Of a DNA stretch of 64,000 bases, positions 3,840 through 32,588 are shown in pieces (position 1 is the first letter of the stretch; every line of letters starts with the position of its first letter). Below the pieces are notes generated by a model, which saw only the letters and a list, made by a program, of their open reading frames with translations, searched no databases and was not told the DNA's origin. Origin of the DNA: an uncultured bacterium (GTDB taxonomy: Bacteria; Patescibacteriota; Minisyncoccia; Phycocordibacterales; Phycocordibacteraceae). Position numbers and translations under genes: made by a program. The stretch covers positions 61,813 to 125,812 of the forward strand of contig CAWKPH010000001.1 of NCBI GenBank assembly GCA_963851445.1, written 5' to 3'.

Positions 3840-5372
3840 TTATTGAGAACCGACTAGGGACACCTGGTCCCCCTGTGAAAGTCCCGACAACACTTCAACC
3901 GACGTGCTGTTTGATATACCAACGGTTATGGGCGTCTCAACAGGACCGCTCGCGGCCTCCTTGAGGACATAATTTTCGGTGCCGTTTGTGATGAGAGCGC
4001 TCTTGGGTATAAGAAGTACGTTATCGGCGCTCCCTGCATGAATGGTCGCGTTTGCATGCATACCGTTCGTAATCGCAGGGTCTGCGGTATTGAATACGAG
4101 AGTCACCTTGTATCCCTGAGTACCATCAGCCTGCGTCGTTGGCGAGGTATCAATGGCTGAAACAGTCGCAGGAAAGATGCGTCCAGTTCCGTATGCATCG
4201 AGAGTTATGTCGGTTGCGTCCCCTACCGTAAGCGACGGGATATCGTTCTCGGGCAAATACACCTCGACTTCAAAATTGCCGCTCGGAATGAGCGAGATAA
4301 TTGGCGTGGTCGCCGTAACTACATCGCCTGTATTAACAAACACACTTGCAATCGTTCCTGAAAACGGCGCAATGACTTGCTGCTGTTTTATCTGTGCCTC
4401 GATACCTGAGACCACCGCTTGCTGTGCTTCGATACTCTGAGTTGATGCTCCTGCGAGCGTTTGATTTAGCTGATCCTGCGCTGATTCCACCGCAAGTTGC
4501 TGTGTAGTTATCGATTGACCAGCAGCGGTGAGCGAGGTGATAAGGCTGTTGATCGTGTCACGACCGGCATTCACTTGTGCAAGGTCTGCCGATTCTTGTG
4601 ATTGCGTAAAAGTAGGGCTGACTGGCGTGTCATTGAGAGCGGTTACAAGATCATCGAATAATGTACGGATTTGTTCAAGATTAGTGATACTCTCATTTGT
4701 TTGTGTCTCTAGCTGACTGGGTGAAGGAGCAGCGGGGACTGCTGCAACTTGTTCCTGCCACGTGTTGAACAAACTTATGAGTGCGTAACGATCCTGGTCT
4801 ACCGTGATTCCATCTGACTGGTTCGTTGTGCTTAGCATGAATGAGGGGTTGTTCGGATTTGAAAAGTTAAAAAGAGGATCTGCACCCGTGTTCACCGCCT
4901 GTTGTGCTTGCGCGTACGTGCTCTCGAGCATTTGCGGGTAATTCGTGTAGGTATTCGTAAGCGTTTGTTGCGCCGAGGTCACTGCGGTCTGTTGCCCAGC
5001 AATATCGACACTTCGAGGACCCGATTCAAGCTGATTGAGGCTCGCCTCGGCCGCTTCAAGCTGCGCACCAAGAACACTGGTATCTAAGGAGGCAAGGAGT
5101 GTTCCTGCAGAAACCTTGTCGCCAACCTTTACGTCCAAGGAAGTGACCTGGCCCCCCGATTCGAAAGTGAGGGTTGGGTTTTGTACAGGAGTAACCATAC
5201 CAGTTGCGGTTATATCCTCAGTAATATCACCTTTCGTCACGGCGGCGTAAACCACCCTTGGCGGTGCTGACTCAATAAAATAGTAGGAAAGACCTCCGAG
5301 TATGATGACAACAACGACAGCGATCGCAACTTTCACAGGGGTAGTTTGAAGTAGTTCAGAAATAGAAGGCAT
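3840..5372 (-). CDS. Efflux periplasmic adaptor (membrane fusion protein) with long coiled-coil hairpin
   Basis: 510 aa ORF with an N-terminal TM, an extended Q/A/T-rich coiled coil, and lipoyl plus beta-barrel MFP architecture. Confidence 0.65.
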   Translation of the reverse strand: MPSISELLQTTPVKVAIAVVVVIILGGLSYYFIESAPPRVVYAAVTKGDITEDITATGMVTPVQNPTLTFESGGQVTSLDVKVGDKVSAGTLLASLDTSVLGAQLEAAEASLNQLESGPRSVDIAGQQTAVTSAQQTLTNTYTNYPQMLESTYAQAQQAVNTGADPLFNFSNPNNPSFMLSTTNQSDGITVDQDRYALISLFNTWQEQVAAVPAAPSPSQLETQTNESITNLEQIRTLFDDLVTALNDTPVSPTFTQSQESADLAQVNAGRDTINSLITSLTAAGQSITTQQLAVESAQDQLNQTLAGASTQSIEAQQAVVSGIEAQIKQQQVIAPFSGTIASVFVNTGDVVTATTPIISLIPSGNFEVEVYLPENDIPSLTVGDATDITLDAYGTGRIFPATVSAIDTSPTTQADGTQGYKVTLVFNTADPAITNGMHANATIHAGSADNVLLIPKSALITNGTENYVLKEAASGPVETPITVGISNSTSVEVLSGLSQGDQVSLVGSQ

Positions 5373-5412
5373 ACGGCGAATGAGGTAAGGCTAAATAATT
5401 CTTAAAAAAGAT

Positions 5413-5865
5413 TTATGTGGTACGAGTAATTACAGTAAGTATACGAGCTAGTTCGTGACAATCGCGATCAGATAACGAGGCCATAACTCGCGAGAAAGCA
5501 TGTTCACGCATCTTCATTGCTTGATCGAGGAGGTGTATGCCTTTCTTCGAGAGTATGAGGCGCACACGGCGGCGATCTTTTGGATCCTCGACGCGCTCAA
5601 TCATTCCTTCTTTGACGAAAGTATTGATGAGCGAGGTTGCCGTTGGTGGCGCTATCTTAAGATACTCAGCAACATCACTCATGGTAGGTGTACTTCGTTC
5701 CGCTATGAATCGAAGTGTTTCGATATGCAAGAACGTAGTTATAGGACAACCTTCACGAGTTATCTCGCTCTTGAGAAGTCGGCCCACCTCAAACATAAGC
5801 GGAAGTAGCTTCTTCTTGTTCAGCGTGCCGAGATTTCGGACTTTCCGTTGGATTGTTGCTTCCAT
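5413..5865 (-). CDS. MarR family transcriptional regulator
   Basis: 150 aa winged-HTH MarR-like ORF (…SDVAEYLKIAPPTATSLINTFVKEGMIERVEDPKDRRRVRL…) at the head of the efflux cluster. Confidence 0.85.
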   Translation of the reverse strand: MEATIQRKVRNLGTLNKKKLLPLMFEVGRLLKSEITREGCPITTFLHIETLRFIAERSTPTMSDVAEYLKIAPPTATSLINTFVKEGMIERVEDPKDRRRVRLILSKKGIHLLDQAMKMREHAFSRVMASLSDRDCHELARILTVITRTT

Positions 5866-10974: not shown

Positions 10975-11247
10975 TGTGTATTTAGTTGATTGGCGCGCAA
11001 TTTTCTTTCGTCTCTTTTCGTACAGGCTTTGCTGCAGATTTGCGAGAACGCTGTCGCGAGATGCGCGCGATTATAAGAAGCAAAAGGAGATTTCTACTTT
11101 TCGCTCAACCGATCTCGAGAGTTTGCAGATTTCGTTCTTCATCTGGTCCTGAGCGACTCTCAAGACGATAAACGGGTAGAGATTGGTTATGTACAGAGTA
11201 GCATGCCTCGCTGTTTTTGCAAGGCCCTATAGAAAATAGACGCGCGC

Positions 11248-11400
11248 CTAAGAAATGGGATTCTTCCCTTGAATGAGGCGTATTAGTATCAGAATAATCG
11301 CGATGACGAGAAGGACATGAATGAATCCTCCAAGGGTATAGGAGGTGATGAGTCCAAGTGCCCAAAGAATAAGAAGTATGACTGCAATTGTGATCAACAT
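11248..11400 (-). CDS. Small membrane protein, lmo0937-family-like (50 aa)
   Basis: ATG at 11400; encodes MLITIAVILLILWALGLITSYTLGGFIHVLLVIAIILILIRLIQGKNPIS, two TM helices. Missed by the ORF track because an overlapping frame is longer. Confidence 0.45.
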   Translation of the reverse strand: MLITIAVILLILWALGLITSYTLGGFIHVLLVIAIILILIRLIQGKNPIS

Positions 11401-11486
11401 ATCTTGTATATTTATCTACTAATATAGCTACGAGAAACCTATATCCACACAATACTACAATACGCTCCTATAGATAGAGTACGATT

Positions 11487-16879: not shown

Positions 16880-17428
16880 TCAAATTCGATATTCTTTACG
16901 CAATTCACTTCTACACGCCTTGTAATCGGGAACGGTCTTTGTAACTAATTTCCAAAACCGTTCTGAATGATTCATTTCCTTGAGGTGGCAAAGCTCGTGC
17001 ACAATAATGTAGTCCGCAAGATGCGACGGCAGGAGTGCAATACGAAAATTAAAACTGAGTGTGCCCCTTTTTGAACAACTCCCCCAGCGTGTTTTCTGAT
17101 TTCTCATAGTTACTCTCGAGTATTGAAACCCATAAAACTGATTGAAGTACGTGAGTCGTGAAAGAGCCAGTGTTCGGGCATGATCCCTATATCCTTTACT
17201 CTCAGCTACAGAAAACTTTTTAGGACCACTTATTTCTTTTTGCCTCCCATCCTCGAATTTAGTGAATGTTTTCTCAATCCATACTGATTTTGTCTTAAGA
17301 AATTGCTCTACTACTTCAACGGAGACCTTCCGAGGTGTGGTAACCACAATTCGACCATCAGGATGGATTGTAAGTATCGTACTTTTCGCACGACGATTTA
17401 TTCTGTGAGTATAATTCCATTCGCGCAT
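16880..17428 (-). CDS. YgjP-like metal-dependent hydrolase (DUF45/SprT-like, HExxH)
   Basis: 182 aa ORF with WGSCS and HELCHLKEMNHSERFW motifs. Confidence 0.75.
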   Translation of the reverse strand: MREWNYTHRINRRAKSTILTIHPDGRIVVTTPRKVSVEVVEQFLKTKSVWIEKTFTKFEDGRQKEISGPKKFSVAESKGYRDHARTLALSRLTYFNQFYGFQYSRVTMRNQKTRWGSCSKRGTLSFNFRIALLPSHLADYIIVHELCHLKEMNHSERFWKLVTKTVPDYKACRSELRKEYRI

Positions 17429-21695: not shown

Positions 21696-22220
21696 TTAAA
21701 TAGTTACATCCATCTGTAACGTTTCCTTAATTTCATTCAGCGTTTCTTGGATATTCTTGTCTTTTGTATCTATAACAACCGCATCTAATCGCTCCTTTCT
21801 AAGCGCATCAGCTTTCTCCCACAACTTTCCCACCTTTTCTGGAGTAAGAAGGCTTCCCGGCCTATATCCACGCTCGTCTGCACGCGCTTGGGTGGTGGCT
21901 TTGTCAGCAAACAAGAGAAACTCGTATACCTCTGCGTTGTACTTCTTGGCTACAGCAATAAACAACTCAAGAGTATCTGAGTACGAAATAGCCTTATCAA
22001 TAATTACGCTCTGCCCATTTCTAAAGGCTCCGTCGATGGCGCCTGCTGCTTTCTCATAAGCAAGGCTGAGACTTTCTTCCTGGTTTTCCTTGTAGTCTGG
22101 TATCGAGCGGCGAATCTCATCTACATCAATAAGAACCGAGTTCGGCATATCTGCATGTAGTAATGTCGAAATTGTAGACTTGCCCACTCCCGACGGACCA
22201 TTGAGGATGATAAGTTTCAT
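21696..22220 (-). CDS. P-loop NTPase, AAA_33/zeta-toxin/CPT-like small-molecule kinase
   Basis: 174 aa ORF with Walker A (LNGPSGVGKST) and a small kinase-like fold. Confidence 0.6.
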   Translation of the reverse strand: MKLIILNGPSGVGKSTISTLLHADMPNSVLIDVDEIRRSIPDYKENQEESLSLAYEKAAGAIDGAFRNGQSVIIDKAISYSDTLELFIAVAKKYNAEVYEFLLFADKATTQARADERGYRPGSLLTPEKVGKLWEKADALRKERLDAVVIDTKDKNIQETLNEIKETLQMDVTI

Positions 22221-22228
22221 ATTTCCGC

Positions 22229-22729
22229 TTAGCCTATTAGCTTCTTAAGTTCTGCGACATCTATACGATCTGATTCCCGTTGCCACATGAGCATCTCTTT
22301 GTTTTTTATGATAAGTGCCTTGGAAAGAAGTGGTAATTTGAATCTCTGCCATTCGACTACTTCAACATTAGGGAAACCGTCTTTGTAGAAATTCTCGTAC
22401 TTTTGGATTTCCTTATCAAAAATATCCATCTCGGACATAGGACAGATATCCAAAATTTCCATCACTTCTACGTTGTAGTTGTCGTAGTTCTGGTCAAAAA
22501 AATGTTCGAGGGGACTCGTGATGTATGGCTCCACAATTGAGAGAAATTCCTTGAAGACAGCGTCATCTTTGGAGACTTCAATATCAATGTCAATGTCCGT
22601 GATACTGCGAGGTACACCGTACACGTAGCATGCAAATCCACCCGTGATGCACCAGCGCAAATTGAGCTTTTCAAGAATCGGAATTATATACGTAAGCGCT
22701 TCATATGCTTTTTGCTGTTCGGGACTCAT
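22229..22729 (-). CDS. Nucleotidyltransferase-fold protein (aminoglycoside/lincosamide NTase-like)
   Basis: Contains the NTase signature GGFACYVYGVPRSITDIDIDI (GS…D.D). Start taken at MSPEQQ to avoid overlap with the dgkA-like stop. Confidence 0.5.
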   Translation of the reverse strand: MSPEQQKAYEALTYIIPILEKLNLRWCITGGFACYVYGVPRSITDIDIDIEVSKDDAVFKEFLSIVEPYITSPLEHFFDQNYDNYNVEVMEILDICPMSEMDIFDKEIQKYENFYKDGFPNVEVVEWQRFKLPLLSKALIIKNKEMLMWQRESDRIDVAELKKLIG

Positions 22730-22740
22730 GTTGAATTTTT

Positions 22741-23091
22741 CTAAGCAAACTTCCGAATCAGGATGAAAGCAAGACAAACGAGTCCGAATATCGCTGCCCA
22801 AAAAACAGCTGCCGAAGCTAAATCCTTACTGCGTCCAATTGCTTCATCACGTGCAGGGTGGATCTTGCTGAGCGCCATTTCAATTGCTGAATTCTGTAAC
22901 TCAGTGACTATTACAAAGAACCAGCAGAATGTAAGTAATAGCATGTCATCCGGAGAAAGATCGAATAAGAAATAAACAATTGGGAGTCCAATAACAGCAA
23001 GCGCGATATCGATTTGGATAGCGCTATCATGCGTAAGAGCGTAGAGCAATCCACGAAACGGGTGTGAGAATCTTGTAATCCAATACTTCAT
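22741..23091 (-). CDS. Diacylglycerol kinase family protein (prokaryotic DgkA/undecaprenol kinase type)
   Basis: 116 aa ORF with three TM helices and the ALTHD…NSAIE…DLASAAV motifs. Confidence 0.75.
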   Translation of the reverse strand: MKYWITRFSHPFRGLLYALTHDSAIQIDIALAVIGLPIVYFLFDLSPDDMLLLTFCWFFVIVTELQNSAIEMALSKIHPARDEAIGRSKDLASAAVFWAAIFGLVCLAFILIRKFA

Positions 23092-23115
23092 AACATCATT
23101 TTACCTTGAGAATCA

Positions 23116-23418
23116 TTACCTTTTAGCTTTTTTCTTGCGCAGTATCCCTCGTACCGACTGGCTGATTGGCTTGTCAGTTCGGTGAATGCAGCCTATCCAG
23201 CAACACGGTCGCCTCATCCCCTCGATGAGTTCCGAACATACTCTTCTCACATGATCTTTCCGCGTCTCCGGGGTCTTAACTGAGATGGTCCAGCAAATCC
23301 ATTCATTCCGTGCGAGCGGCGTAATGTCTTCCCATGCAGCGAGCGCTTTCGGTGAAGTAACGAGTGCCTTCTTTAAATCTGCAGGTAACTTATGCGCAGT
23401 TCCTGATGATACTTTCAT
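23116..23418 (-). CDS. YdeI/OmpD-associated family protein
   Basis: 100 aa ORF; …LAAWEDITPLARNEWICWTISVKTPETRKDHVRRV…RRPCCW matches the family. Confidence 0.6.
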   Translation of the reverse strand: MKVSSGTAHKLPADLKKALVTSPKALAAWEDITPLARNEWICWTISVKTPETRKDHVRRVCSELIEGMRRPCCWIGCIHRTDKPISQSVRGILRKKKAKR

Positions 23419-23500
23419 AACAGCATATTAACATTTAACTTTCTGTGCCTGTCCATGAATGGCACTGGGTCTAGTATATAAAGTTAAGGTTTAAAGAGTT

Positions 23501-23521
23501 GGTTCGAGTCTTAGAGAGGTC
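23501..23521 (-). repeat. Copy 3 (inverted orientation) of a 21-nt repeated element GGTTCGAGTCTTAGAGAGGTC
   Basis: Shares about 21 of 31 positions with copies 1 and 2, on the opposite strand, and abuts the ICMT-1 stop codon. Confidence 0.35.
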
Positions 23522-24197
23522 ACCACACAAACGGCACTAAGTGATATTTCACTTTCTTCTCGTACTCCACATAGCCCGGAAGATCTCTTGCCAATACTCG
23601 CTCTTCGTCAAGAAGTCTCCAAACGAGTACTAGTGTGAAAAGAACGAGCGTAAGGAGTCCCCACCACGAACCAAGTGCAAGTGGAGTCCCCAGAATGAGG
23701 ATGAGAGCTCCGCTGTACATAGGATGTCGGACCCAGGCGTATGTACCAGTAGAGATGACCTTCTGTCCGCTATCTACTTCAATAAGTGCAGAAGCGTACG
23801 TGTTTTCTTTAAAGACAAGGAATACGATATAGAAACCAATCACAACAAGAATATCGCCTATAATGCTTACATACGATGGCACTATGGACCAGCCGAAGCG
23901 ATGATCAAGTGCTGGAAGAATAATGACTAAAAGGAATGAGACCTGGGCAATGGATTGTATTATCTTCTGACTTGTCTCTTTCTCGTTGAGCGGACCTGCG
24001 CTTATTCGCCGCTCCAAAAGCTTCGGGTCGCTTTTCATCAAGTTGATGGTGATCGCGAAAGCCGGCCCAAAGAACGCTATGAGGAAAACCCATGCTTGCC
24101 AGTAATTAAAGGTCCATGCTGAAATAAAGAGCATTGCTGCCGTGACAGCGAGAAGTGTAAGAGATCCAATAACTGCTTTTAGGTTCACATTTTTCAT
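23520..24197 (-). CDS. Isoprenylcysteine carboxyl methyltransferase (ICMT/PEMT) family membrane methyltransferase, paralog 1
   Basis: 225 aa multi-TM ORF with C-terminal …RHPMYSGALILILG…LLDEERVL…EYEKKV, typical of ICMT. Confidence 0.75.
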   Translation of the reverse strand: MKNVNLKAVIGSLTLLAVTAAMLFISAWTFNYWQAWVFLIAFFGPAFAITINLMKSDPKLLERRISAGPLNEKETSQKIIQSIAQVSFLLVIILPALDHRFGWSIVPSYVSIIGDILVVIGFYIVFLVFKENTYASALIEVDSGQKVISTGTYAWVRHPMYSGALILILGTPLALGSWWGLLTLVLFTLVLVWRLLDEERVLARDLPGYVEYEKKVKYHLVPFVW

Positions 24198-24210
24198 CGT
24201 AAAGCTTGAA

Positions 24211-24885
24211 TTAGAAAATTCCCGGTATTAGGTGCCAGTGAACCTTCGCTTGATATTCCGTATAGCCCGATAGATTTAATGCAAGAAATTTTTCTTCGTC
24301 AAATAATCGCCAAACAAAACCTAGAGCCAGGAGAACAACTGGAACAAGTCCCCAATAAGAGCCCAGAGCCAAAGATATACCGATGAAATAGAGTATCGCA
24401 CATGAATACATTGGGTTTCGCACGATTGCATAGGGACCGGTTGAAACGACTTTTTGATCTTTCGTCACCTCGATACTCGCGGAACCAAAAGAATTTTCCT
24501 TGAACACTCGATACACCATCCACATGCTCAGTATGATGATGAGGTCGCCCATGATGGGAACCCAGGATGGCGCGCTCGACCATACAAAACGGTGATCGAA
24601 CCCGGGAACAATGAATGTAGCGATGAGCGGCACTCCTAGAGCCCATACTATGATCTTTTGGATAGGCCGGTGTTCTTCGGTTGGTCCACCTCGAGTTCTA
24701 TTTTCGAGTAGTATCGGATCGTTAGTTATGTAAAGGGTTATGGGGATGCTCGTCACGACGACGACTCCAAGAAATAGCCATGCCTGCCAGTACTGTATGG
24801 TCCCAGCCGAAAGAAATATTGCAAGTCCCATAAGGATAATTGTTATAACAAATCCGAACCAGGCTCCTGCTTTAGGATTCTTCAT
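24211..24885 (-). CDS. ICMT/PEMT family membrane methyltransferase, paralog 2
   Basis: 224 aa ORF with the same architecture as the adjacent paralog (…RNPMYSCAILYFIG…FDEEKFL…EYQAKV). Confidence 0.75.
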   Translation of the reverse strand: MKNPKAGAWFGFVITIILMGLAIFLSAGTIQYWQAWLFLGVVVVTSIPITLYITNDPILLENRTRGGPTEEHRPIQKIIVWALGVPLIATFIVPGFDHRFVWSSAPSWVPIMGDLIIILSMWMVYRVFKENSFGSASIEVTKDQKVVSTGPYAIVRNPMYSCAILYFIGISLALGSYWGLVPVVLLALGFVWRLFDEEKFLALNLSGYTEYQAKVHWHLIPGIF

Positions 24886-24906
24886 GACTTAAGGATAGCA
24901 CTATTC

Positions 24907-24927
24907 GACCATTCTCGGATTCGAACT
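24907..24927 (+). repeat. Copy 1 of the 21-nt element (+strand GACCATTCTCGGATTCGAACT; mRNA-sense AGTTCGAATCCGAGAATGGTC)
   Basis: Matches copy 2 at 20 of 21 positions. Lies about 20 nt upstream of the ICMT-2 start codon within a ~60-80-nt homologous upstream block. Confidence 0.5.
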
Positions 24928-24992
24928 GATTTCGCGTCCAAGAATATGAAAGCCCTTGGTCTTTCGATATTTCGATTCGAGTCTCAGAGGGA

Positions 24993-25595
24993 TCAGAATG
25001 ATCCTGTTTTGACTTCGCCTGCGCGTTGAAAATTAGCGATGATGACACCACTCGGGGTATGTATGCATTTCTCCAAAGTAAAAGCTGCAGGAATCGTACC
25101 AACTTCGAAAAGTCGTTTCCCGACACCGAGCGTAATGGGGAAAATTTTGAGCCAAAGCTCGTCAACAAGATCGTATTTAAGAAGTGTCTGGATGAAATTC
25201 CCACTGCCGTGCACCTGCAATTCCAGACCATCTTGCTGCTTCAATTTCTGGATTTCACCGATCACATTTTCTTTGAGCACAACTGTCTTCTCCCAATCGG
25301 TTTCAAGTGGCGTAGTGCTGGCGACGTATTTCGTTGCTTTGTTGATGCTGTTTCCAATCGGGTTGTCATTATGGAGCGGCCAATACGACTTGAAGATGTC
25401 GTATGTCTTCCTGCCGAGGAGCAAGTCGAACGGATGTTCCAATTGCTCAAGCATCACTTTGCCGCCAACCTCGTCCATATACGGAACTGTCCATCCGCCG
25501 TATTTGAAATCACCCGAAGTATCTTCTTGCGGGCCTCCTGGCGCCTGCATAACACCGTCGAGTGTAACAAAAGACAGGACAATTATCTTTCTCAT
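24993..25595 (-). CDS. Dihydrofolate reductase family protein (RibD C-terminal domain type)
   Basis: 200 aa ORF; N-terminus MRKIIVLSFVTLDGVMQAPGGPQED…GRKTYD is typical of the RibD_C/DHFR-like family. Confidence 0.75.
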   Translation of the reverse strand: MRKIIVLSFVTLDGVMQAPGGPQEDTSGDFKYGGWTVPYMDEVGGKVMLEQLEHPFDLLLGRKTYDIFKSYWPLHNDNPIGNSINKATKYVASTTPLETDWEKTVVLKENVIGEIQKLKQQDGLELQVHGSGNFIQTLLKYDLVDELWLKIFPITLGVGKRLFEVGTIPAAFTLEKCIHTPSGVIIANFQRAGEVKTGSF

Positions 25596-25622
25596 CCAGA
25601 GATTTTAACACACCAAGATGAT

Positions 25623-25643
25623 GACCTTTCTCGGATTCGAACT
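25623..25643 (+). repeat. Copy 2 of the 21-nt element (+strand GACCTTTCTCGGATTCGAACT)
   Basis: Matches copy 1 at 20 of 21 positions and lies about 30 nt upstream of the DHFR-family start codon. Confidence 0.5.
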
Positions 25644-25804
25644 CAATCTATGACTTACATACTCATCTCGAATCTTAGACCCGTTATGACTCCTCTAGGA
25701 AATTATTTTCCGCTCGCCAAACGGCGCCTTAGATATTCGCATGTGTCCTGGTCGTTCGATACTTAACTAGACTGCTGGAAGTGTGGAACGATATCCGAAC
25801 AGAA

Positions 25805-26209
25805 TTAGCTTTTTCTTCTGTTCAATAAAGTCACAGAAAATTGAAGAATGGTAGCGAATGTTACCCACGCGAGATACGGGAGATTACTATACGCAATCCA
25901 AGGTGCATATGTATATACAGAAAGAAGAGCCCACACTAAGGTAATGTCGACGAGCAATATATCGACAAGAGCAAGCGAGAAGTTCTGTAATCGGAATTGA
26001 ATAGTTGTGTAAGAGAAATTAAAAATTAGATTCAATAGAAACGGGAGTATTACTACAAAAGGCACTCCTTTATTAAAATATTCCAAGAATATATATCCAA
26101 AAGAAATTACGATCACTACGTAAAGAACCGTCCATACAGGAGCGAATAGCCATGCGGGAGGCGACCACGACGGTTTTCGGTATTCTTTGTATCTAGAGTC
26201 ATTCTTCAT
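25805..26209 (-). CDS. TspO/MBR (tryptophan-rich sensory protein) family
   Basis: 134 aa ORF with the PPAWLFAPVWTVLY motif and a multi-TM, Trp-rich sequence. Confidence 0.7.
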   Translation of the reverse strand: MKNDSRYKEYRKPSWSPPAWLFAPVWTVLYVVIVISFGYIFLEYFNKGVPFVVILPFLLNLIFNFSYTTIQFRLQNFSLALVDILLVDITLVWALLSVYTYAPWIAYSNLPYLAWVTFATILQFSVTLLNRRKS

Positions 26210-26271
26210 TCAAAAAGTATAGCCCATCTAGATTGGCTGGGAGTCTGGTACGACGTGGGAACCTTTTTGCG

Positions 26272-26910
26272 CTAGCGTACAGGTTGTCCAGCTAGGATTT
26301 GGAATACAAATTGCAAAAGCATAAATTGGTCGTAAATATCCTTCATTATCTCGCTTAAGGTTTCATCCTTCATCGAATTAATCTTTTCTATCAATTCAGG
26401 ATTCTCGGGATACCTAAGTAGTAAATTTTTCGGGTCAGGATATGGCCGACCCAAATATAAGTGATTCCTATATTTCAAGATTATCTCGGGTAATTTCTTC
26501 TCCCAGTAAAGAAGTGTTCCTGAATATATAAGAACTTGTGGAAGTTTTGTTTTCTTTCCTTGTATATCTACTTCCACATAATCAAAGGCATTCTCAAGCT
26601 CATCTACAGGAAGTGTTCGAAGAAGTAAGGAAATCTCTTTACCTACTTTCCGAAGGTCATGCTCATTCCGAATAGGTATCTTAAACTGAATGCTATAAGC
26701 CTTCATGGCTAATTCCAACCCATGTTTGAAGAGATAGATGGCCACTCCAATTCCATTTTTCTGTGTTCCCCAATCTTTTCTATCCTGTATCTCTTTAGCT
26801 AAGATTTTTGCATTAGAGAGATATTCTAGCGCAAAGCTAAACCAGTCCAAGAAGCCTTTCTCAAACGGCTGTCCTTCAACAATATTATCTTTGTTTATTC
26901 TTACCGCCAT
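26272..26910 (-). CDS. Hypothetical protein encoded in AT-rich (~33% GC) segment
   Basis: 212 aa ORF with no recognizable family. The local GC drop relative to ~50% flanks suggests foreign origin. Confidence 0.5.
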   Translation of the reverse strand: MAVRINKDNIVEGQPFEKGFLDWFSFALEYLSNAKILAKEIQDRKDWGTQKNGIGVAIYLFKHGLELAMKAYSIQFKIPIRNEHDLRKVGKEISLLLRTLPVDELENAFDYVEVDIQGKKTKLPQVLIYSGTLLYWEKKLPEIILKYRNHLYLGRPYPDPKNLLLRYPENPELIEKINSMKDETLSEIMKDIYDQFMLLQFVFQILAGQPVR

Positions 26911-27312
26911 TTTGAATTAATTATTTAAATGTAACGCGTTTCTTTTTAAGGTACACTCCAAGTCCAAGAGCTACCATATATGACCATGCTGTCCATTTTC
27001 GTCCAAAATCTTTTCTCCCACATATTTCTCTCTGGATCTCCACCAAATTTACTACTATTGGCCATCGTCTTATAAACATCCTCAGAAATAAAGATATTTA
27101 AGGAATCATCATTTATGGATGACAACTTTACGGCATAAAGCATTTCAATCGAAAATTCTAGGACAGAAGGAAGAAGAATGTAAGGCGAAGGAGGTAGATA
27201 TAAGAAACTATGCCAAATATCTCTTACGTGAAGGAGCTGACGTAGAGAAGCGAGAATTGCTCGGATGCCTTAGAAGCAAAATACTTTTAAGCGACAAGAC
27301 TATTTCTCTCGG

Positions 27313-27825
27313 CTAGGCTGTGTAATTCGTCTCAATATTTAGCTGAGCTTTTATTTCAAGTGCACGCGCCATCAGATGATCGCCTATCTCCCCCCAATCG
27401 AAATACTCCTTATAGTCCTTAGGGTCTATTAATTTTATCTCGGTAATATCTCCGTCGGGATCACTTACAAAATTTCCATACGGTTCGACCAAACAAACAG
27501 AGCGCGTCTGCGAGATGATCCCTTCAGAATTGTGAATATCTTGATAGCCAATAAATCGCTGTTTAAGTACACGCATGTTAGTTTCCTCTTTTACTTCACG
27601 GCTCACAGCTTCTCGAGCAGTTTCTCCTTCTTCAACACCTCCCCCGGGAGGAGTCCAATACCCTTTATTCTTTGCATACACGATAACTAACTGGTCTTTA
27701 TAGAAACAATATGCGTGAACTCCACTAATCTTTTTATCGCCATAATCTAGCTCACTATTAATATCGTGGTATTCAACTTTTAGTACTTCACCTGAAGCGT
27801 TAGTTAGATTTGATGAGATGTTCAT
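27313..27825 (-). CDS. NUDIX hydrolase
   Basis: Contains the Nudix box GGGVEEGETAREAVSREVKEETN. Confidence 0.8.
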   Translation of the reverse strand: MNISSNLTNASGEVLKVEYHDINSELDYGDKKISGVHAYCFYKDQLVIVYAKNKGYWTPPGGGVEEGETAREAVSREVKEETNMRVLKQRFIGYQDIHNSEGIISQTRSVCLVEPYGNFVSDPDGDITEIKLIDPKDYKEYFDWGEIGDHLMARALEIKAQLNIETNYTA

Positions 27826-28802
27826 ACGTACAGCTTTTGAATTATATCTCCTTGAATAAAGTCCCTAAGTAACCGAGCTTCATGCGACACAAAGTGATTT
27901 CCTCGAGCGTCTCCTAGATCGTAGTAATGGTTCTCAAGCCATGAAGTTAGTACCATGCGGCGAAGTCGGACTTCTAGTCCATCCAGTAGTTCCTTTCTTA
28001 AAATTGGATAAATGGAATTGTATCCAGCAATAATTTCATTCGCTGAAGCAACTCCACTTTCTTCGGTATAGTCACCGGTAAAGCTTATGTAAAGAATAGC
28101 GCGAGCAAGTTCAGCTGCACGAGGAGCCATTTCTGCCTTTTCCCAGTCACATACTCCGATGATTTCTCGACTCTTTGTATCTATAAGAAGATTTCCCGCC
28201 TGATAGTCACCGTGCGTCAGAATATCGCTTGGTAGTACTATATCCATACTAAGCGTTGAAATGAGATCGAGCTTTAGTTGTGTGTACGAAATAAATTCTT
28301 CGTCGATAGGATCTTTCGTTTCTTTGCTTTCAATACGCACTTTGTATTCCTGTATCTTCGCTAGCTCTCCTTCCTTTGGTTTTTCTCGAAATGACTTCTG
28401 CGTGAGAAGTTCTGGAACATCTTTACTGCCTGCAACATGTATCTTGCCTAAGAGAACTCCCATGTTTCTATAGCCTTCGAGGGAGTAGTTATGTGAACGA
28501 TCGCTTTCCAGGAACGGGTAGAGTGAATACGCATTACTGTCATATACCACAAACTTCTCTCCCATATTTGAAGGAATCATACAGACAGCAGGAATGTCTC
28601 GTTCGCTCATAAGCTCCTCAACTAATGCAGTTGCTGGAAGTATATCCTTGCTCTTCTCTCGCACTTCCTTAATGAAGTACTTTCCCGAGCTTGTCGAGAG
28701 TATGTAGTTTTTGTTGAGAATTCCTTCTGTCACCTCGCTAATAGATTGAACGTCACCCAAGCTAAAATCTGTAACTAGCTTCTTGAGGTGCTCGGGGCTC
28801 AT
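27822..28802 (-). CDS. Phosphotransferase enzyme family protein (APH/choline-kinase-like)
   Basis: Contains the HGDYQAGNLLID catalytic loop and a CDWE motif. The stop overlaps the NUDIX start by 4 nt. Confidence 0.75.
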   Translation of the reverse strand: MSPEHLKKLVTDFSLGDVQSISEVTEGILNKNYILSTSSGKYFIKEVREKSKDILPATALVEELMSERDIPAVCMIPSNMGEKFVVYDSNAYSLYPFLESDRSHNYSLEGYRNMGVLLGKIHVAGSKDVPELLTQKSFREKPKEGELAKIQEYKVRIESKETKDPIDEEFISYTQLKLDLISTLSMDIVLPSDILTHGDYQAGNLLIDTKSREIIGVCDWEKAEMAPRAAELARAILYISFTGDYTEESGVASANEIIAGYNSIYPILRKELLDGLEVRLRRMVLTSWLENHYYDLGDARGNHFVSHEARLLRDFIQGDIIQKLYV

Positions 28803-28804
28803 GT

Positions 28805-30868
28805 TTAAATATTAGACTTACTGCCCACTCCGAGTTGATCAAACACAAAGCTCCATACATCCGCCTCCTGCTCAACTGCACGTGAGACAGCAAATGCTCC
28901 GCTGTGTCCAGCTTTCATTTCGACACGCATAAGTATCGGATGATCTGAGACATTTGCTTCCTGCAAGCGAGCAGCGAGCTTATAGGCGTGAAGTGGATGT
29001 ACTCGATCATCTCCGTCCGAGGTCATGATGAGCGTTGCCGGATACTTTTCGCCGTCCTTTACGTTATGGTACGGACTATAGCCAAAAAGATACGGAATCA
29101 TATCTGGATCATCAGGATCTCCAAAATCAGGGATCCAATGCCTACCGCCGTGGTGAAGATGGAAACGCAACATGTCAGATACAGGAACTCGGCAAACCAC
29201 AGCCTGGACCAAATCAGGTCGCTGTGTTTCAAGAGCAGAGACAAGTAGACCGCCGTTGCTTCCTCCCATAATGGCAAGCTTCTTTTTTGAAGAGTACTTC
29301 TGTGCGATTAAGTATTCCGCAGCTGCAATGAAATCATCAAACACATTTTGCTTGCTCTTCTTCATACCAGCTTCGTGCCACTTACGCCCAAACTCACCAC
29401 CGCCGCGAAGATTCGCTACTGCATAGATACCCCCACGCTCGATGAGTGGTATTGGATTAATCGTATACGCTGGGCGAAGGCTAATATCAAATCCTCCGTA
29501 TCCATAGAGCATAGTCGGATTATTCCCATCCTTTTGCAGACCTTTCTTGTACACGAGGAACATAGGGACTTTCGTACCATCCTTTGATGTAAACCAAACT
29601 TGCTCAGTTACGATCTCGTCCGTATTGAAGGTCGCTTGTACTTTGTGAAAAATGGAAGTAGTTCCAGACTCCAAATCCATCCTAAAAATAGTCGGCGGGT
29701 ACGCGAACGAGGTAAATGAATAAAACATTTCTTTACCCTCTGATTCGCCAGACATTCCTCCGGCAGTTCCGATGCCAGGCAATTCAATATTTCGTACACA
29801 CTCTCCTGTTAGCGTGTACTCGTTAATGACCGACTGAACATTATGGGTATATTCCACAAATAGTTTTTCACCGATAAATTTAAAGGCAGCGAGGAGATCA
29901 TCACTCTCTGGCAAAATATCGGTAAATTCTGGCTTACCTGCAAGTGCCTTTTCAACGGGAGTTGCCATGAGCTTGAAGTGCGGTGCATTATCATTTGTAC
30001 TTACGTAGAGCATGTCGCGATGAATATGTCCGCCCTGCTCTGCACCAGGCACACGCTTCAATACGAGTGTGAAATCAGATTTTGTGTTTGCTTCCTTAAT
30101 ATAAATCTCTGACCAGTTCTCTCCATTTTCTTGACCCCATATTGTCCCAAGGAGGTACTTATTGTCATCTGACAAACGTACTGATGGCTGCCACTCTTTC
30201 GCAAACCCCTTACCCCATACATAAGAATCTTTATCCGAAGTCTCTCCAATTGTATGGAAGTACAGTCTCTTGTGGAATTTAGGTTCATTTTCTGGTGCAT
30301 CAGGATCACGCCGTACATACCAGAAGCCAGTACCGTCTGCATTCCATGCGCTCATAGCGGGATACAGGTCGTCTGGAATGAGGTCTGGAAGCGTATCGCC
30401 CGTATCGACGTTCAGTACATGCAAATCCCGTTTATCATTTCCAGATTTTGAAAGACCATATACAATCCATTTCCCGTCGCGTGACGGTGTCCAGCCTGAA
30501 AGAATAGTTGTCTTATCAGGAGATAGTGTATTTGGGTCTATGAGTATTCGCTCATTTCCTTCGAGATCTTCTCGAACATACAGCACTGGCATGTCCTGCT
30601 TTGGTTCGCGCTTGCTGTAGAAGTAACGGTTATTCCGCACAATAGGAGTCCCGACTGATTCAAATTCAGCGAGTTCTTTAAGCTCGTCTCGAAGTATGTT
30701 TCGTATAGGAAGTGAGGAAAAATATTCCGAGGCGACATTACCCTGTTTAGTGAGCCAGTCATGTAGTTGCGTTTCATTTGGATCGCCTTCTAGCCAACGG
30801 TATGGATCAGGTACTTTTGTGCCGTGTAAATCTTCAATAAGATCTTCCTTTCGAGTCTCTAATTTCAT
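28805..30868 (-). CDS. Prolyl oligopeptidase (S9A) family serine peptidase
   Basis: 687 aa ORF with an N-terminal beta-propeller and a C-terminal alpha/beta hydrolase carrying the GGSNGGLL nucleophile motif. Confidence 0.9.
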   Translation of the reverse strand: MKLETRKEDLIEDLHGTKVPDPYRWLEGDPNETQLHDWLTKQGNVASEYFSSLPIRNILRDELKELAEFESVGTPIVRNNRYFYSKREPKQDMPVLYVREDLEGNERILIDPNTLSPDKTTILSGWTPSRDGKWIVYGLSKSGNDKRDLHVLNVDTGDTLPDLIPDDLYPAMSAWNADGTGFWYVRRDPDAPENEPKFHKRLYFHTIGETSDKDSYVWGKGFAKEWQPSVRLSDDNKYLLGTIWGQENGENWSEIYIKEANTKSDFTLVLKRVPGAEQGGHIHRDMLYVSTNDNAPHFKLMATPVEKALAGKPEFTDILPESDDLLAAFKFIGEKLFVEYTHNVQSVINEYTLTGECVRNIELPGIGTAGGMSGESEGKEMFYSFTSFAYPPTIFRMDLESGTTSIFHKVQATFNTDEIVTEQVWFTSKDGTKVPMFLVYKKGLQKDGNNPTMLYGYGGFDISLRPAYTINPIPLIERGGIYAVANLRGGGEFGRKWHEAGMKKSKQNVFDDFIAAAEYLIAQKYSSKKKLAIMGGSNGGLLVSALETQRPDLVQAVVCRVPVSDMLRFHLHHGGRHWIPDFGDPDDPDMIPYLFGYSPYHNVKDGEKYPATLIMTSDGDDRVHPLHAYKLAARLQEANVSDHPILMRVEMKAGHSGAFAVSRAVEQEADVWSFVFDQLGVGSKSNI

Positions 30869-30914
30869 ACATGCATTTTATCAGAAGTATCTCCTTTCTA
30901 TAACTAGCGATGGC

Positions 30915-30929
30915 TTTAGGACTCGAACC
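30915..30929 (-). repeat. tRNA T-arm-like fragment (GGTTCGAGTCCTAAA on minus strand), copy A
   Basis: Identical 15-mer to copy B, 65 nt away. No acceptor or anticodon arms can be formed. Confidence 0.4.
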
Positions 30930-30980
30930 GAAATCCATCCCATATTTAAAAGAGTTCTAACTTTTCCTAATCTGCACCTG

Positions 30981-30995
30981 TTTAGGACTCGAACC
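30981..30995 (-). repeat. tRNA T-arm-like fragment (GGTTCGAGTCCTAAA), copy B
   Basis: Shares GGTTCGAGTCCTA with the T-arm of the intact tRNA-Gln 60 nt upstream. Confidence 0.4.
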
Positions 30996-31056
30996 CGAGC
31001 CTTCAAAATATCCTTTAGTTATCTACGCGTCTCGAGCGCGATAACCTAGCACGAGT

Positions 31057-31130
31057 TGGCTGCGAGACTAGGACTCGAACCTAGATAACGACCTCCAGAG
31101 GGTCGCGTCCTACCATTAGACGATCTCGCA
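31057..31130 (-). tRNA. tRNA-Gln (anticodon CUG), CCA encoded
   Basis: Manual cloverleaf: acceptor TGCGAGA/TCTCGCA (U1:A72, G73), D-arm GTCT/GGAC, anticodon stem CGACC/GGTCG with loop CTCTGGA, T-arm CTAGG-TTCGAGT-CCTAG, then GCCA. Confidence 0.85.
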
Positions 31131-31254
31131 ATGGTGATGCCCAAACTGCAAACGCGGCAGCATCCTACCGCGTAGTAGTTAATAGAATACTTTAAAAGGA
31201 AGCCCCATTCAAGCAGCCTCTTTTTTAATATAATGCGCTATATCTTTCGACTGA

Positions 31255-31686
31255 TTAGAACCACATCCCGAACAATGCACCCATTAGTAGAAGCGTTACA
31301 AGAAATTGTCCCGCGTTGATCCACCAAAGTTTCCATGGCTTCCCCTCCCAGAGCACGCTCGGCAAGAGCACCGGTGCAACAAAACCAAGCCATGCGAAAA
31401 AACCGACAGAGAGTCCGGTAACAATTCCTTTGTTATCTAAGTACGCCGACGTATGCAGATACGCGCGAGAAAGTATGAATGCCATTACGAGTGCTCCAAT
31501 GAATTGGAGGAGGTATTTACCGCCCATACCCTTTCGCATCTTCATCTTTTCTTCGTGAGACATGTTCTTCATATCCATGCCTGTCATGCGCATCCACGGT
31601 TTCCCAAATAACGGCCCATACCAGAGTGTACCAACCACCATGGCGAGAACTGCAGCCACCACTACTGCTAAAAGATGAATTGACAT
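31255..31686 (-). CDS. DUF1761 family membrane protein
   Basis: 143 aa ORF; N-terminus MSIHLLAVVVAAVLAMVVGTLWYGPLFGKPW and four TM helices match DUF1761. Confidence 0.55.
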   Translation of the reverse strand: MSIHLLAVVVAAVLAMVVGTLWYGPLFGKPWMRMTGMDMKNMSHEEKMKMRKGMGGKYLLQFIGALVMAFILSRAYLHTSAYLDNKGIVTGLSVGFFAWLGFVAPVLLPSVLWEGKPWKLWWINAGQFLVTLLLMGALFGMWF

Positions 31687-31742
31687 AGTATCTACGGATT
31701 TATTAGAGCGGATTTTTGCCCGCTAACGCAAAGATACCATGA

Positions 31743-32588
31743 CTACGGGTTTGTTGGAGCAGTTGTTGATGTATTACTTGAGCCCTTCACTGCGACGTAG
31801 ATCGTGGCAATATCAGCACGTGCTGCTTTAAGATCATTGGTCGCAGTCTGAATTTTTGACTTAGCGTCTTTGATCGTCGCGCTGTTTGAAGCCTCAATGG
31901 TTGTATTCCCCTGATCAGGCTGCAGGCCCACTGTCTCGCTAAGTGCAGCTGCAGCTTGCGTGTTTGCATCAGATATCTTTGCGTTCATATCGGTATACGC
32001 AGATACTGCAGCAGAAGGATTTCCAGCGGCAGTAATGCGCGTTTCGAGTTTTGGTGCAAGACCTTGCATAAGACCGACGATGGTATCAATACGATCGGAG
32101 GTTGCTGCAATCCGTACTTGTGGAAGCACGAGCAGATAAATACGATAGTTCTTGGTGATCGTTGCAGCGTCTGCTCGAAGAGTCGCCCCAGTTGTATCGC
32201 TGTTAATTTGTGCCTCAAGGGTATTCATTTCAGTTATTTGCGCTGAGAGAATTCCCTGAAGAGACGTCACCTCACTTGCCGAAAGATTTTTCACCCCACC
32301 AAGACGTGTTGAGGCTGAGTTCAAGGATGAAATGCGCGCGCTGATTGCCGCATCTGCTGCAGTCTGCGCCGTGGTGAATCGTGCGCTAGTATGGGTACCC
32401 GTAGTTGTAGTGACGGGAGCGTTAGTAACTGAAACACCGGTAGTTGCACCCACTACGGTACTTGTGACAGGAGTTTGTACTCCAACGTTTGCGTTTACAC
32501 CTATAGTCTGTGCTAATGCCGCTACTGGTAAAGTTGCCGCGAGCACGGCGATGCTAAGTAAACTTGCTATACGTGATGTTTTTTTCAT
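31743..32588 (-). CDS. Secreted hypothetical protein (signal peptide, Thr/Ala-rich, helical)
   Basis: 281 aa ORF with a signal peptide (MKKTSRIASLLSIAVLAATLPVAALA) and no family assignment. Confidence 0.45.
   Translation of the reverse strand: MKKTSRIASLLSIAVLAATLPVAALAQTIGVNANVGVQTPVTSTVVGATTGVSVTNAPVTTTTGTHTSARFTTAQTAADAAISARISSLNSASTRLGGVKNLSASEVTSLQGILSAQITEMNTLEAQINSDTTGATLRADAATITKNYRIYLLVLPQVRIAATSDRIDTIVGLMQGLAPKLETRITAAGNPSAAVSAYTDMNAKISDANTQAAAALSETVGLQPDQGNTTIEASNSATIKDAKSKIQTATNDLKAARADIATIYVAVKGSSNTSTTAPTNP

Follow-up and report, generated by a model that had tools for sequence, protein, structure and literature searches.

A probable decayed mobile-element and defence scar, with an intact HEPN-fold gene, in a tRNA-Gln-linked variable region

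In the 64-kb stretch of DNA analysed here (the window; contig CAWKPH010000001.1), an initial annotation singled out an AT-rich island at positions 26210-28802, encoding a 212-amino-acid (aa) protein that it called unassignable, a NUDIX hydrolase and an APH-like kinase. It proposed that the hydrolase and the kinase form a module. The locus raises the question of whether these genes belong to one functional unit or came together by other routes. We consider it likely that the stretch is the decayed scar of a mobile element and its defence genes, located in a variable region linked to tRNA-Gln and accompanied by an intact gene for a HEPN-fold protein, and that it is not one functional module. The pieces are of known kinds; what is new is a rare HEPN-fold family that no profile of Pfam, NCBIfam, PADLOC or PHROGs matches above its cut-off, together with evidence for Pycsar and tRNA-Gln-targeting phages in genomes that appear to be of the Candidate Phyla Radiation (CPR) type. 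The locus changes no major concept and represents a tidy case of defence-island turnover.

Two truncated genes meet head to head

The AT-rich spacer at 26911-27312 had been thought to hold only doubtful mini-open reading frames (ORFs). Two of these are instead C-terminal remnants of known genes, a Pycsar cyclase and a serine integrase. On the minus strand, a 65-aa ORF (26946-27143) matched the PADLOC profile PDLC00766 of the cyclase PycC at positions 172-231 of 232 (E-value E = 2.6e-14, 51 bits), and 26946-27137 represents the final 62 codons and stop of PycC, the last 27% of the cyclase. In a tblastn search of plasmids, homologues of this ORF were found in genes for an 'adenylate/guanylate cyclase' of about 233 aa. 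These are full-length PycC proteins (351 and 312 bits) encoded directly downstream of PycTIR effectors or effectors that bind cyclic nucleotide monophosphates (cNMP). Residues 173-235 of the PycC from an Agrobacterium plasmid (351 bits), which adjoins a PycTIR effector, aligned to 27137-26946 through the stop (tblastn E = 5e-13, 45% identity). Identity of the remnant to the full-length plasmid proteins was 35-45%, with the same stop position.

The match to the PycC family covers the C-terminal segment only. Querying the whole window by tblastn with three full-length PycC proteins identified no further cyclase segment, three plasmid effectors gave nothing better than E = 0.9, and the neighbouring genes had no Pfam match to cNMP-binding or TIR domains. 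A word-based homologue search of 5.8e9 proteins with the 65-aa ORF found none, and comparison with PDB sequences (phmmer/hmmsearch) gave nothing meaningful. A Pycsar system (pyrimidine cyclase system for anti-phage resistance) comprises a full-length pyrimidine cyclase of class III type (PycC) and an adjacent cNMP-binding effector fused to a TIR domain or a transmembrane segment (TM); neither is present here. Set against Pycsar systems of this clade (PDLC00766, with PycTIR effectors), the locus has the 62 matching C-terminal residues, but cyclase residues 1-172, the seat of the fold's catalytic residues, and the cNMP-binding effector are missing from the whole window. As predicted from its sequence, the cyclase remnant cannot function as Pycsar.

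On the opposite strand, 27131-27316 represents the final 60 codons and stop of a large serine integrase, or its last 14%. This was recognised through a set of NUDIX loci, the best 80 of 341 metagenomic relatives of the window's NUDIX hydrolase (L012-L091, 55-77% identity). One of them, L044 (contig Ga0082335_1000026), contains a 55% identical stretch that is continuous, upstream and in frame, with the zinc-ribbon domain of a recombinase (Pfam E = 1e-8) and resembles CcrB-type recombinases. A scan of IMG/VR identified L099 (UViG_3300047678_000750), which encodes an intact 428-aa integrase with Resolvase, Recombinase and Zn_ribbon_recom domains. Its residues 369-427 align to 27131-27310 (53% identity, E = 2e-19). 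By tblastn, no other part of the L099 integrase was found in the window, which thus has none of its Resolvase, Recombinase and zinc-ribbon domains. The 65-aa integrase ORF had no Pfam match and this plus-strand ORF had no match among plasmids; in L044, the integrase remnant of 110 aa was likewise unmatched among phages and belonged to no Pfam family. The window sequence thus shares with large serine recombinases (CcrB or phiC31 type) a 60-residue C-terminal tail that keeps its native stop, but not their three-domain architecture.

The two homologies abut almost exactly. That of the cyclase starts at 27137 and runs leftwards, that of the integrase starts at 27131 and runs rightwards, and they stand head to head within 7 nucleotides (nt). 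Both remnants are without their 5' parts, which were lost at the same position. One deletion behind both truncated ends is the simplest history and probably the correct one. Because both remnants are open to their native stops over 60-plus codons of DNA with a GC content of about 37%, the deletion was probably recent; a rough estimate from base composition puts the chance of meeting no stop at about 1% per remnant.

Composition and layout of the low-GC block

The remnants lie within a block of low GC content that extends beyond the island as first delimited. The features from this block through to tRNA-Gln are as follows, with z-scores for GC calculated per gene against 66 ORFs of the window.

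25805-26209, minus strand: TspO/MBR membrane protein (Pfam TspO_MBR, 97 bits); GC 37.8%, z = -3.1; left part of the low-GC block
26272-26910, minus strand: 212-aa protein with a predicted HEPN fold, intact; GC 37.1%, z = -3.3
26946-27137 (ORF 26946-27143), minus strand: C-terminal remnant of PycC (PADLOC PycC, PDLC00766)
27131-27316 (ORF 27119-27316), plus strand: C-terminal remnant of a large serine integrase (similarity to the L099 integrase tail)
27313-27825, minus strand: NUDIX hydrolase (Pfam NUDIX, 50.7 bits); GC 40.5%, z = -2.2
27822-28802, minus strand: APH-family (eukaryotic-like) kinase (Pfam APH, 48.8 bits); GC 42.4%, z = -1.5
28805-30868, minus strand: prolyl oligopeptidase, peptidase S9 (Pfam Peptidase_S9_N, 292 bits, and Peptidase_S9, 185 bits); GC 45.3%, z = -0.6
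30917-30929, minus strand: second extra copy of the tRNA-Gln 13-mer GGTTCGAGTCCTA; the prolyl oligopeptidase gene starts 48 nt downstream
30983-30995, minus strand: first extra copy of GGTTCGAGTCCTA, an exact 13-mer; putative attachment (att) scar
31057-31130, minus strand: tRNA-Gln(CTG) (ARAGORN; Rfam tRNA, 60.5 bits)

The GC content of 26210-28802 was 40.0%, compared with 45.6% in both flanks and 47.1% in the window overall. Among sliding windows of the same length (mean 47.1%, standard deviation (sd) 2.0%), just 1.5% were as low, all of them overlapping this dip, which spans four contiguous genes and lies about 3.5 sd under the window mean. The minimum of 39.0%, the lowest stretch in the window, was reached in the sliding window starting at 25801, so the dip takes in the TspO gene to the left of 26210. 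On the right the block fades gradually through the kinase (42.4%) to the prolyl oligopeptidase (45.3%). Of the island as initially annotated, the dip itself and the three minus-strand ORFs at their coordinates were confirmed by our analysis, but the dip is milder than first stated and the flanks do not reach about 50% GC.

tRNA-Gln(CTG) as an insertion slot

The integrase of L099 indicates where such an element would insert. Between its stop and the 3' end of a convergent tRNA-Gln(CTG) there are 114 nt, and this tRNA species also stands at the head of the region in the window. On the far side of the L099 tRNA, a host gene ends in what looks, on reading by eye, like a CTP synthase (PyrG) C-terminus. 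From the proximity of the integrase to tRNA-Gln and to this PyrG-like gene end we conclude that L099 is the end of a prophage integrated at tRNA-Gln. This prophage end spans 4047-5520, and its upstream phage genes encode a ParB-N6/N4 methylase, a helix-turn-helix (HTH) protein and a VRR-NUC nuclease. The copy in L044 (7498-8031, minus strand) is separately truncated, retaining residues 258-427 at 92% identity to the L099 protein. It is located 2.7 kb from a tRNA-Gln(CTG), with genes for a NUDIX protein, an LD-carboxypeptidase and a pyrophosphatase in between. L044 and L099 have in common about 110 nt of sequence downstream of the integrase, up to the tRNA junction.

In the window, positions 31069, 30983 and 30917 each carry an exact copy of the 13-mer GGTTCGAGTCCTA, which is the T-loop core of tRNA-Gln, and both extra copies are within 140 nt of the tRNA. 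Allowing up to two mismatches, we counted 7 occurrences in the window versus 1.1 expected, and none of 100 shuffles reached 7. Extra copies of the tRNA-Gln 3' end were also found downstream of the tRNA in L012, L044 (at 4921 and 6785) and L019, and in L012 the GGTTCGAGTCCTA motif is located about 40 nt upstream of the NUDIX gene. When the leader between tRNA and peptidase in the window was compared with that between tRNA and NUDIX in L012, only the tRNA and the 13-nt motif aligned. An Rfam scan of 22000-32000 found the tRNA alone. A role of the T-loop-like motifs as a promoter -35 element was considered and rejected by eye, as their spacing to -10-like boxes is inconsistent.

Among the 80 NUDIX loci, tRNA-Gln lies upstream of NUDIX in 15, on the same strand in 14 and within 335 nt in 10. 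The wider intervals between the two differ by genome and contain a DUF5677 protein in one case, a Y-family polymerase with HD and YdeI-like proteins in another, and elsewhere proteins of unknown function. Since the content of the interval varies in this way, the 3' flank of tRNA-Gln behaves like a slot for variable insertions that precedes a conserved NUDIX gene. By these comparisons, tRNA-Gln(CTG) is both a site at which a family of serine-integrase phages integrates and the head of this slot. tRNA-Gln is by far the commonest tRNA near NUDIX in the 80 loci; a few have tRNA-Gly, Arg, Asn, Met or Asp instead. Such proximity could stem from co-transcription or from capture events that recurred at tRNA sites.

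The initial annotation had proposed horizontal acquisition linked to a tRNA locus, citing tRNA-Gln and T-arm remnants near 30915-31130. ARAGORN, Rfam and the repeats bear out these features, and the truncated serine integrase, the truncated Pycsar cyclase and the T-loop repeats provide evidence for the proposal that is stronger than composition. The supposed adjacency does not hold, as the low-GC block ends 2.25 kb from tRNA-Gln and is therefore not adjacent to it.

A rare protein family with a predicted HEPN fold

Relatives of the 212-aa protein are scarce. We found two in 5.8 billion proteins and about 18 further small relatives in a profile search of 1.84 billion representative proteins, some 20 in all, and none in IMG/VR. 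Residues H63, E66, L67, K70, H84, Y147, D159, N162, P168 and D191 are invariant in the family. From an alignment of 18 sequences, AlphaFold2 predicted an all-alpha, four-helix structure of the HEPN type (predicted local distance difference test (pLDDT) 87.5, predicted template modelling score (pTM) 0.84); with 3 sequences only, the pLDDT was 44 and the model unusable. The score for the Pfam HEPN family (PF05168) was 15.3 bits, below the gathering cut-off of 22; 7 of the 18 members matched this family weakly (best E = 9e-4), and no other family recurred. Comparing the protein and its family profile with PDB sequences (phmmer/hmmsearch) gave nothing meaningful. From the predicted structure we conclude that the protein, previously called unassignable, has a HEPN fold.

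Several features set the protein apart from known HEPN proteins, for which we considered the sacsin HEPN domain (3o10), the HEPN-MNT toxin (7ae2/8xdj), YutE (1ylm) and AF0298 (2hsb). At 212 aa it is larger than these, which have about 130 aa. A beta-hairpin is inserted at 111-124, and D159-x2-N162-x3-R166-Y-P forms an additional conserved loop. The motif spacing of the family is [KR]x3H instead of Rx4-6H, and there is no MNT partner gene, the gene neighbours being TspO and the cyclase remnant. A [KR]-Y-x-x-H(-x-Y) element is found in 12 of the 18 members (K146, H150 and Y152 in the protein encoded here); at the level of sequence, it is reminiscent of the Rx4HxY motif that HEPN-MNT toxins carry. 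Gene contexts vary across the family and include a histidine phosphatase with an NYN nuclease, and ThrRS with GyrB, among others. One relative, P0021 (346 aa), seemingly contains two tandem copies of the domain, with two FRH-x-xELxLK motifs detected by eye.

With low confidence, we suggest that the protein may be a stand-alone RNA-targeting toxin or defence protein that acts through H63/E66/K70/H84 and [KR]146-x3-H150-x-Y152. An orphan protein family thereby gains a fold and a testable catalytic hypothesis. Going further, its members could form an uncatalogued, very rare family of stand-alone HEPN RNases (with [KR]x3HxY and D-x2-N-x3-RYP motifs), toxins or defence proteins carried among ultra-small (CPR-type) bacteria by serine-integrase phages that target tRNA-Gln, of which the window copy would have outlived the Pycsar and integrase genes. 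We put this forward as a speculation that is unlikely to hold in full.

NUDIX hydrolase and kinase are chance neighbours

The NUDIX hydrolase contains the box G62x5E68x7R76E77VxE80E81xN83 (residues 62-84) with all catalytic residues and N for the last G, and it exceeds the Pfam cut-off (50.7 versus 21.1 bits). Its best matches are of the MutT/RppH/YtkD type, including a YtkD-like protein (E = 4e-11), a Deinococcus Nudix protein and Bacillus subtilis RppH (4jzu, E = 2e-6). However, it scores below all equivalog cut-offs for these proteins and differs from them by a 45-residue N-terminal extension and by the G-to-N change at the penultimate position of the box. Judged by sequence, the family is widespread and well conserved among the metagenomic relatives found.

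The kinase scores above the cut-off of Pfam APH (PF01636; 48.8 versus 23.2 bits) and contains the motifs FIKE at 43-46 (K45), HGDYQAGN at 197-204 (H197, D199, N204) and DWE at 219-221. It thus has the catalytic Lys, HGDxxxxN and DWE of APH/CotS/type II homoserine kinase-like phosphotransferases, yet falls far below every curated NCBIfam equivalog: homoserine kinase (ThrB, 60.4 versus 271 bits), CotS (41 versus 173), and the resistance kinases APH(3') (18.2 versus 205) and Mph (at most 14 versus at least 500). These scores argue against the earlier idea of an antibiotic kinase and equally against assignment as a homoserine kinase. No relative of the kinase was found in PDB at E <= 0.001 or in IMG/VR, and 185,579 species genomes yielded four, from Kaiserbacteria, Paceibacteria, Saccharibacteria and a deltaproteobacterial metagenome-assembled genome. 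In the last of these (L011; CAWDZB010000023.1, 7001-7982), the homologue occupies a 1-kb insert with a GC content of 43%, compared with about 60% around it, and is split by a frameshift. The insert follows glycosyltransferase-like genes (by eye) and looks like a recent single-gene transfer that is decaying. The kinase is, by its predicted features, a patchily distributed accessory gene encoding a small-molecule or protein kinase.

A further P-loop kinase is encoded at 21696-22220 (minus strand), with Pfam matches to Zeta_toxin, CPT and AAA_33 listed in the Logan record. Its weak relatives adjoin NUDIX or APH-like kinase genes in L015, L072/L073, L009 and L058, which may point to accessory small-molecule kinases that are loosely linked as a set.

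The NUDIX and kinase genes overlap by 4 nt (ATGA), as the initial annotation had stated, taking this as a sign of coupling. Such close spacing is frequent in the window, where no more than 5 nt separates 8 of the 60 pairs of same-strand neighbours. In addition, 2 nt separate the prolyl oligopeptidase stop from the kinase start, so that three genes are packed rather than two; prolyl oligopeptidase, kinase and NUDIX are probably co-transcribed for no reason other than this packing. The pairing was conserved in none of the 80 NUDIX loci and none of the four kinase loci from species-representative genomes. In other genomes, neither the NUDIX loci nor the kinase loci contain the prolyl oligopeptidase, save for a weak partial match (24% identity) in L052. 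Both the NUDIX hydrolase and the kinase are real, with intact catalytic motifs, yet the two adjoin each other in this genome alone, a chance neighbourhood. None of the three genes of the proposed island is syntenic in relatives, which excludes that all three are syntenic core genes.

The initial annotation's module, in which NUDIX and kinase would be co-expressed and dedicated to nucleotide modification, defence or antibiotic resistance, is therefore very unlikely, even though it would account for the overlapping start and stop and for two sets of intact catalytic motifs. A match of the NUDIX hydrolase to the PADLOC candidate PDC-S07 might also seem to favour it, but this match is weak (E = 1e-9, 54 residues) and confined to the generic NUDIX box. 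Against the module further stand the absence of a partner at all 80 and all four loci, the frequency of tight spacing in the window, and the low scores for antibiotic and homoserine kinases. A tempting but unsupported system is thereby struck from the list of candidate new ones.

Proposed history and alternative explanations

We propose that an integrative element or prophage inserted here, with a divergently transcribed integrase and a Pycsar operon consisting of a cNMP-binding effector followed by the cyclase. A single deletion between the divergent genes would have taken out residues 1-368 of the integrase and 1-172 of the cyclase along with the Pycsar effector, abolishing both mobility and Pycsar immunity. 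The HEPN gene, perhaps together with TspO, may be surviving cargo of the decayed element; an RNA-targeting activity of its product is the least certain step. The peptidase and kinase occupy the interval from tRNA-Gln to NUDIX, whose genes differ from one related genome to the next. Under this history, mini-ORFs that passed for junk in an AT-rich spacer become readable as a dated scar, in which one deletion would have put both a phage integrase and a Pycsar immune system out of action. The genome is small and, going by the nearest relatives of the kinase, probably that of an ultra-small bacterium of Patescibacteria or CPR type. We regard the locus as evidence that Pycsar and serine-integrase phages targeting tRNA-Gln circulate in apparently CPR-type genomes; our literature searches found no paper discussing Pycsar in genomes of the CPR or Patescibacteria.

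Several observations weigh against this history. The integrase remnant is 3.7 kb from tRNA-Gln, with peptidase, kinase and NUDIX in between, compared with a gap of 114 nt in L099. So large a gap requires extra steps, such as tandem insertions or rearrangement. The segment of about 110 nt that follows the integrase in L099 and L044 is absent from the window, as is the tRNA junction, and the remnant ends exactly at a native stop that overlaps the NUDIX stop (CTAG). From this follows a second junction or, alternatively, selection acting on the ORF. An integrase located beyond NUDIX, a missing downstream segment and overlapping stops together call for at least one more rearrangement. A search for a distal copy of the tRNA-Gln acceptor or 3' end found none, which leaves the island without a defined far boundary; a tRNA-linked genomic island would carry direct repeats of the tRNA 3' end on either side, besides an integrase and a deviant composition. 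With regard to the HEPN protein, a Foldseek search of the PDB gave no significant match, although the top one was a HEPN domain (E = 0.12), and the family has no Rx4-6H motif in its canonical form. Five distinct contexts of the family were without cyclase, integrase or MNT genes, and it is the adjacency and shared low GC of the HEPN gene that suggest its origin as cargo. Lastly, GC at third codon positions is only 1.3-1.8 sd under the window mean.

This last value would fit a different explanation, in which the dip is ordinary local variation (caused, for example, by membrane or lysine-rich proteins), the genes are native and the remnants are unrelated old debris. The three other single genes of the window that are similarly AT-rich, and the many relatives of the NUDIX family at 55-77% identity, point the same way. 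Ordinary variation would nonetheless have to account for four contiguous genes that form the lowest-GC stretch of 64 kb, for kinase and HEPN genes that are very sparse and patchy in distribution, and for integrase and defence-gene remnants inside the block, both of them open over 60-plus codons, which is unlikely for old debris. We consider it improbable, if less so than the remaining alternatives.

The open frames might also mean that the two 65-aa ORFs are domesticated and functional as mini-proteins, since they kept their native stops and have no internal ones, the integrase tail ends at the CTAG shared with the NUDIX stop, and the plus-strand ORF was called by the gene caller behind the Logan record. 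That gene caller chose another frame over the cyclase remnant, however, and the word-based search of 5.8e9 proteins contained no free-standing short homologue of the cyclase ORF. Among the related loci compared, the integrase tail matched only longer integrase sequences (L044 and L099), of which the L044 copy is truncated differently, and we give domestication hardly any weight. It is just as implausible that the HEPN protein is a new Pycsar effector partnered with the truncated cyclase upstream, an arrangement suggested by the start of its gene 35 nt past the stop of the cyclase remnant on the same strand. In this PycC clade the effector (cNMP binding plus TIR or TM) precedes the cyclase, the 212-aa protein has no Pfam cyclic-nucleotide-binding domain, and a cyclase accompanies the family in none of five distinct contexts. 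On these grounds of gene order, domain content and family context we rejected the HEPN protein as a Pycsar effector.

Other features of the window

Outside the low-GC block, the ORFs at 11105-11452, 16880-17428 and 22229-22801 have a GC content 1.7-2.1 sd under the window mean and may be further small acquired genes. To the left of TspO, two tandem paralogues encode membrane methyltransferases of the PEMT/ICMT type (23520-24197 and 24211-24885, minus strand), with 13 nt between them. To the right of them lies a 21-nt direct repeat, AGTTCGAATCCGAGAA[A/T]GGTC, at 24907-24927 and 25623-25643 (minus strand), whose copies are identical at 20 of 21 positions. The two AGTTCGAATCCGAGAA copies flank a RibD_C-like gene (24993-25595), and each is located about 20-30 nt upstream of the following gene start. 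The repeat resembles the T-loop-to-acceptor end of a tRNA and could mark an old cassette insertion.

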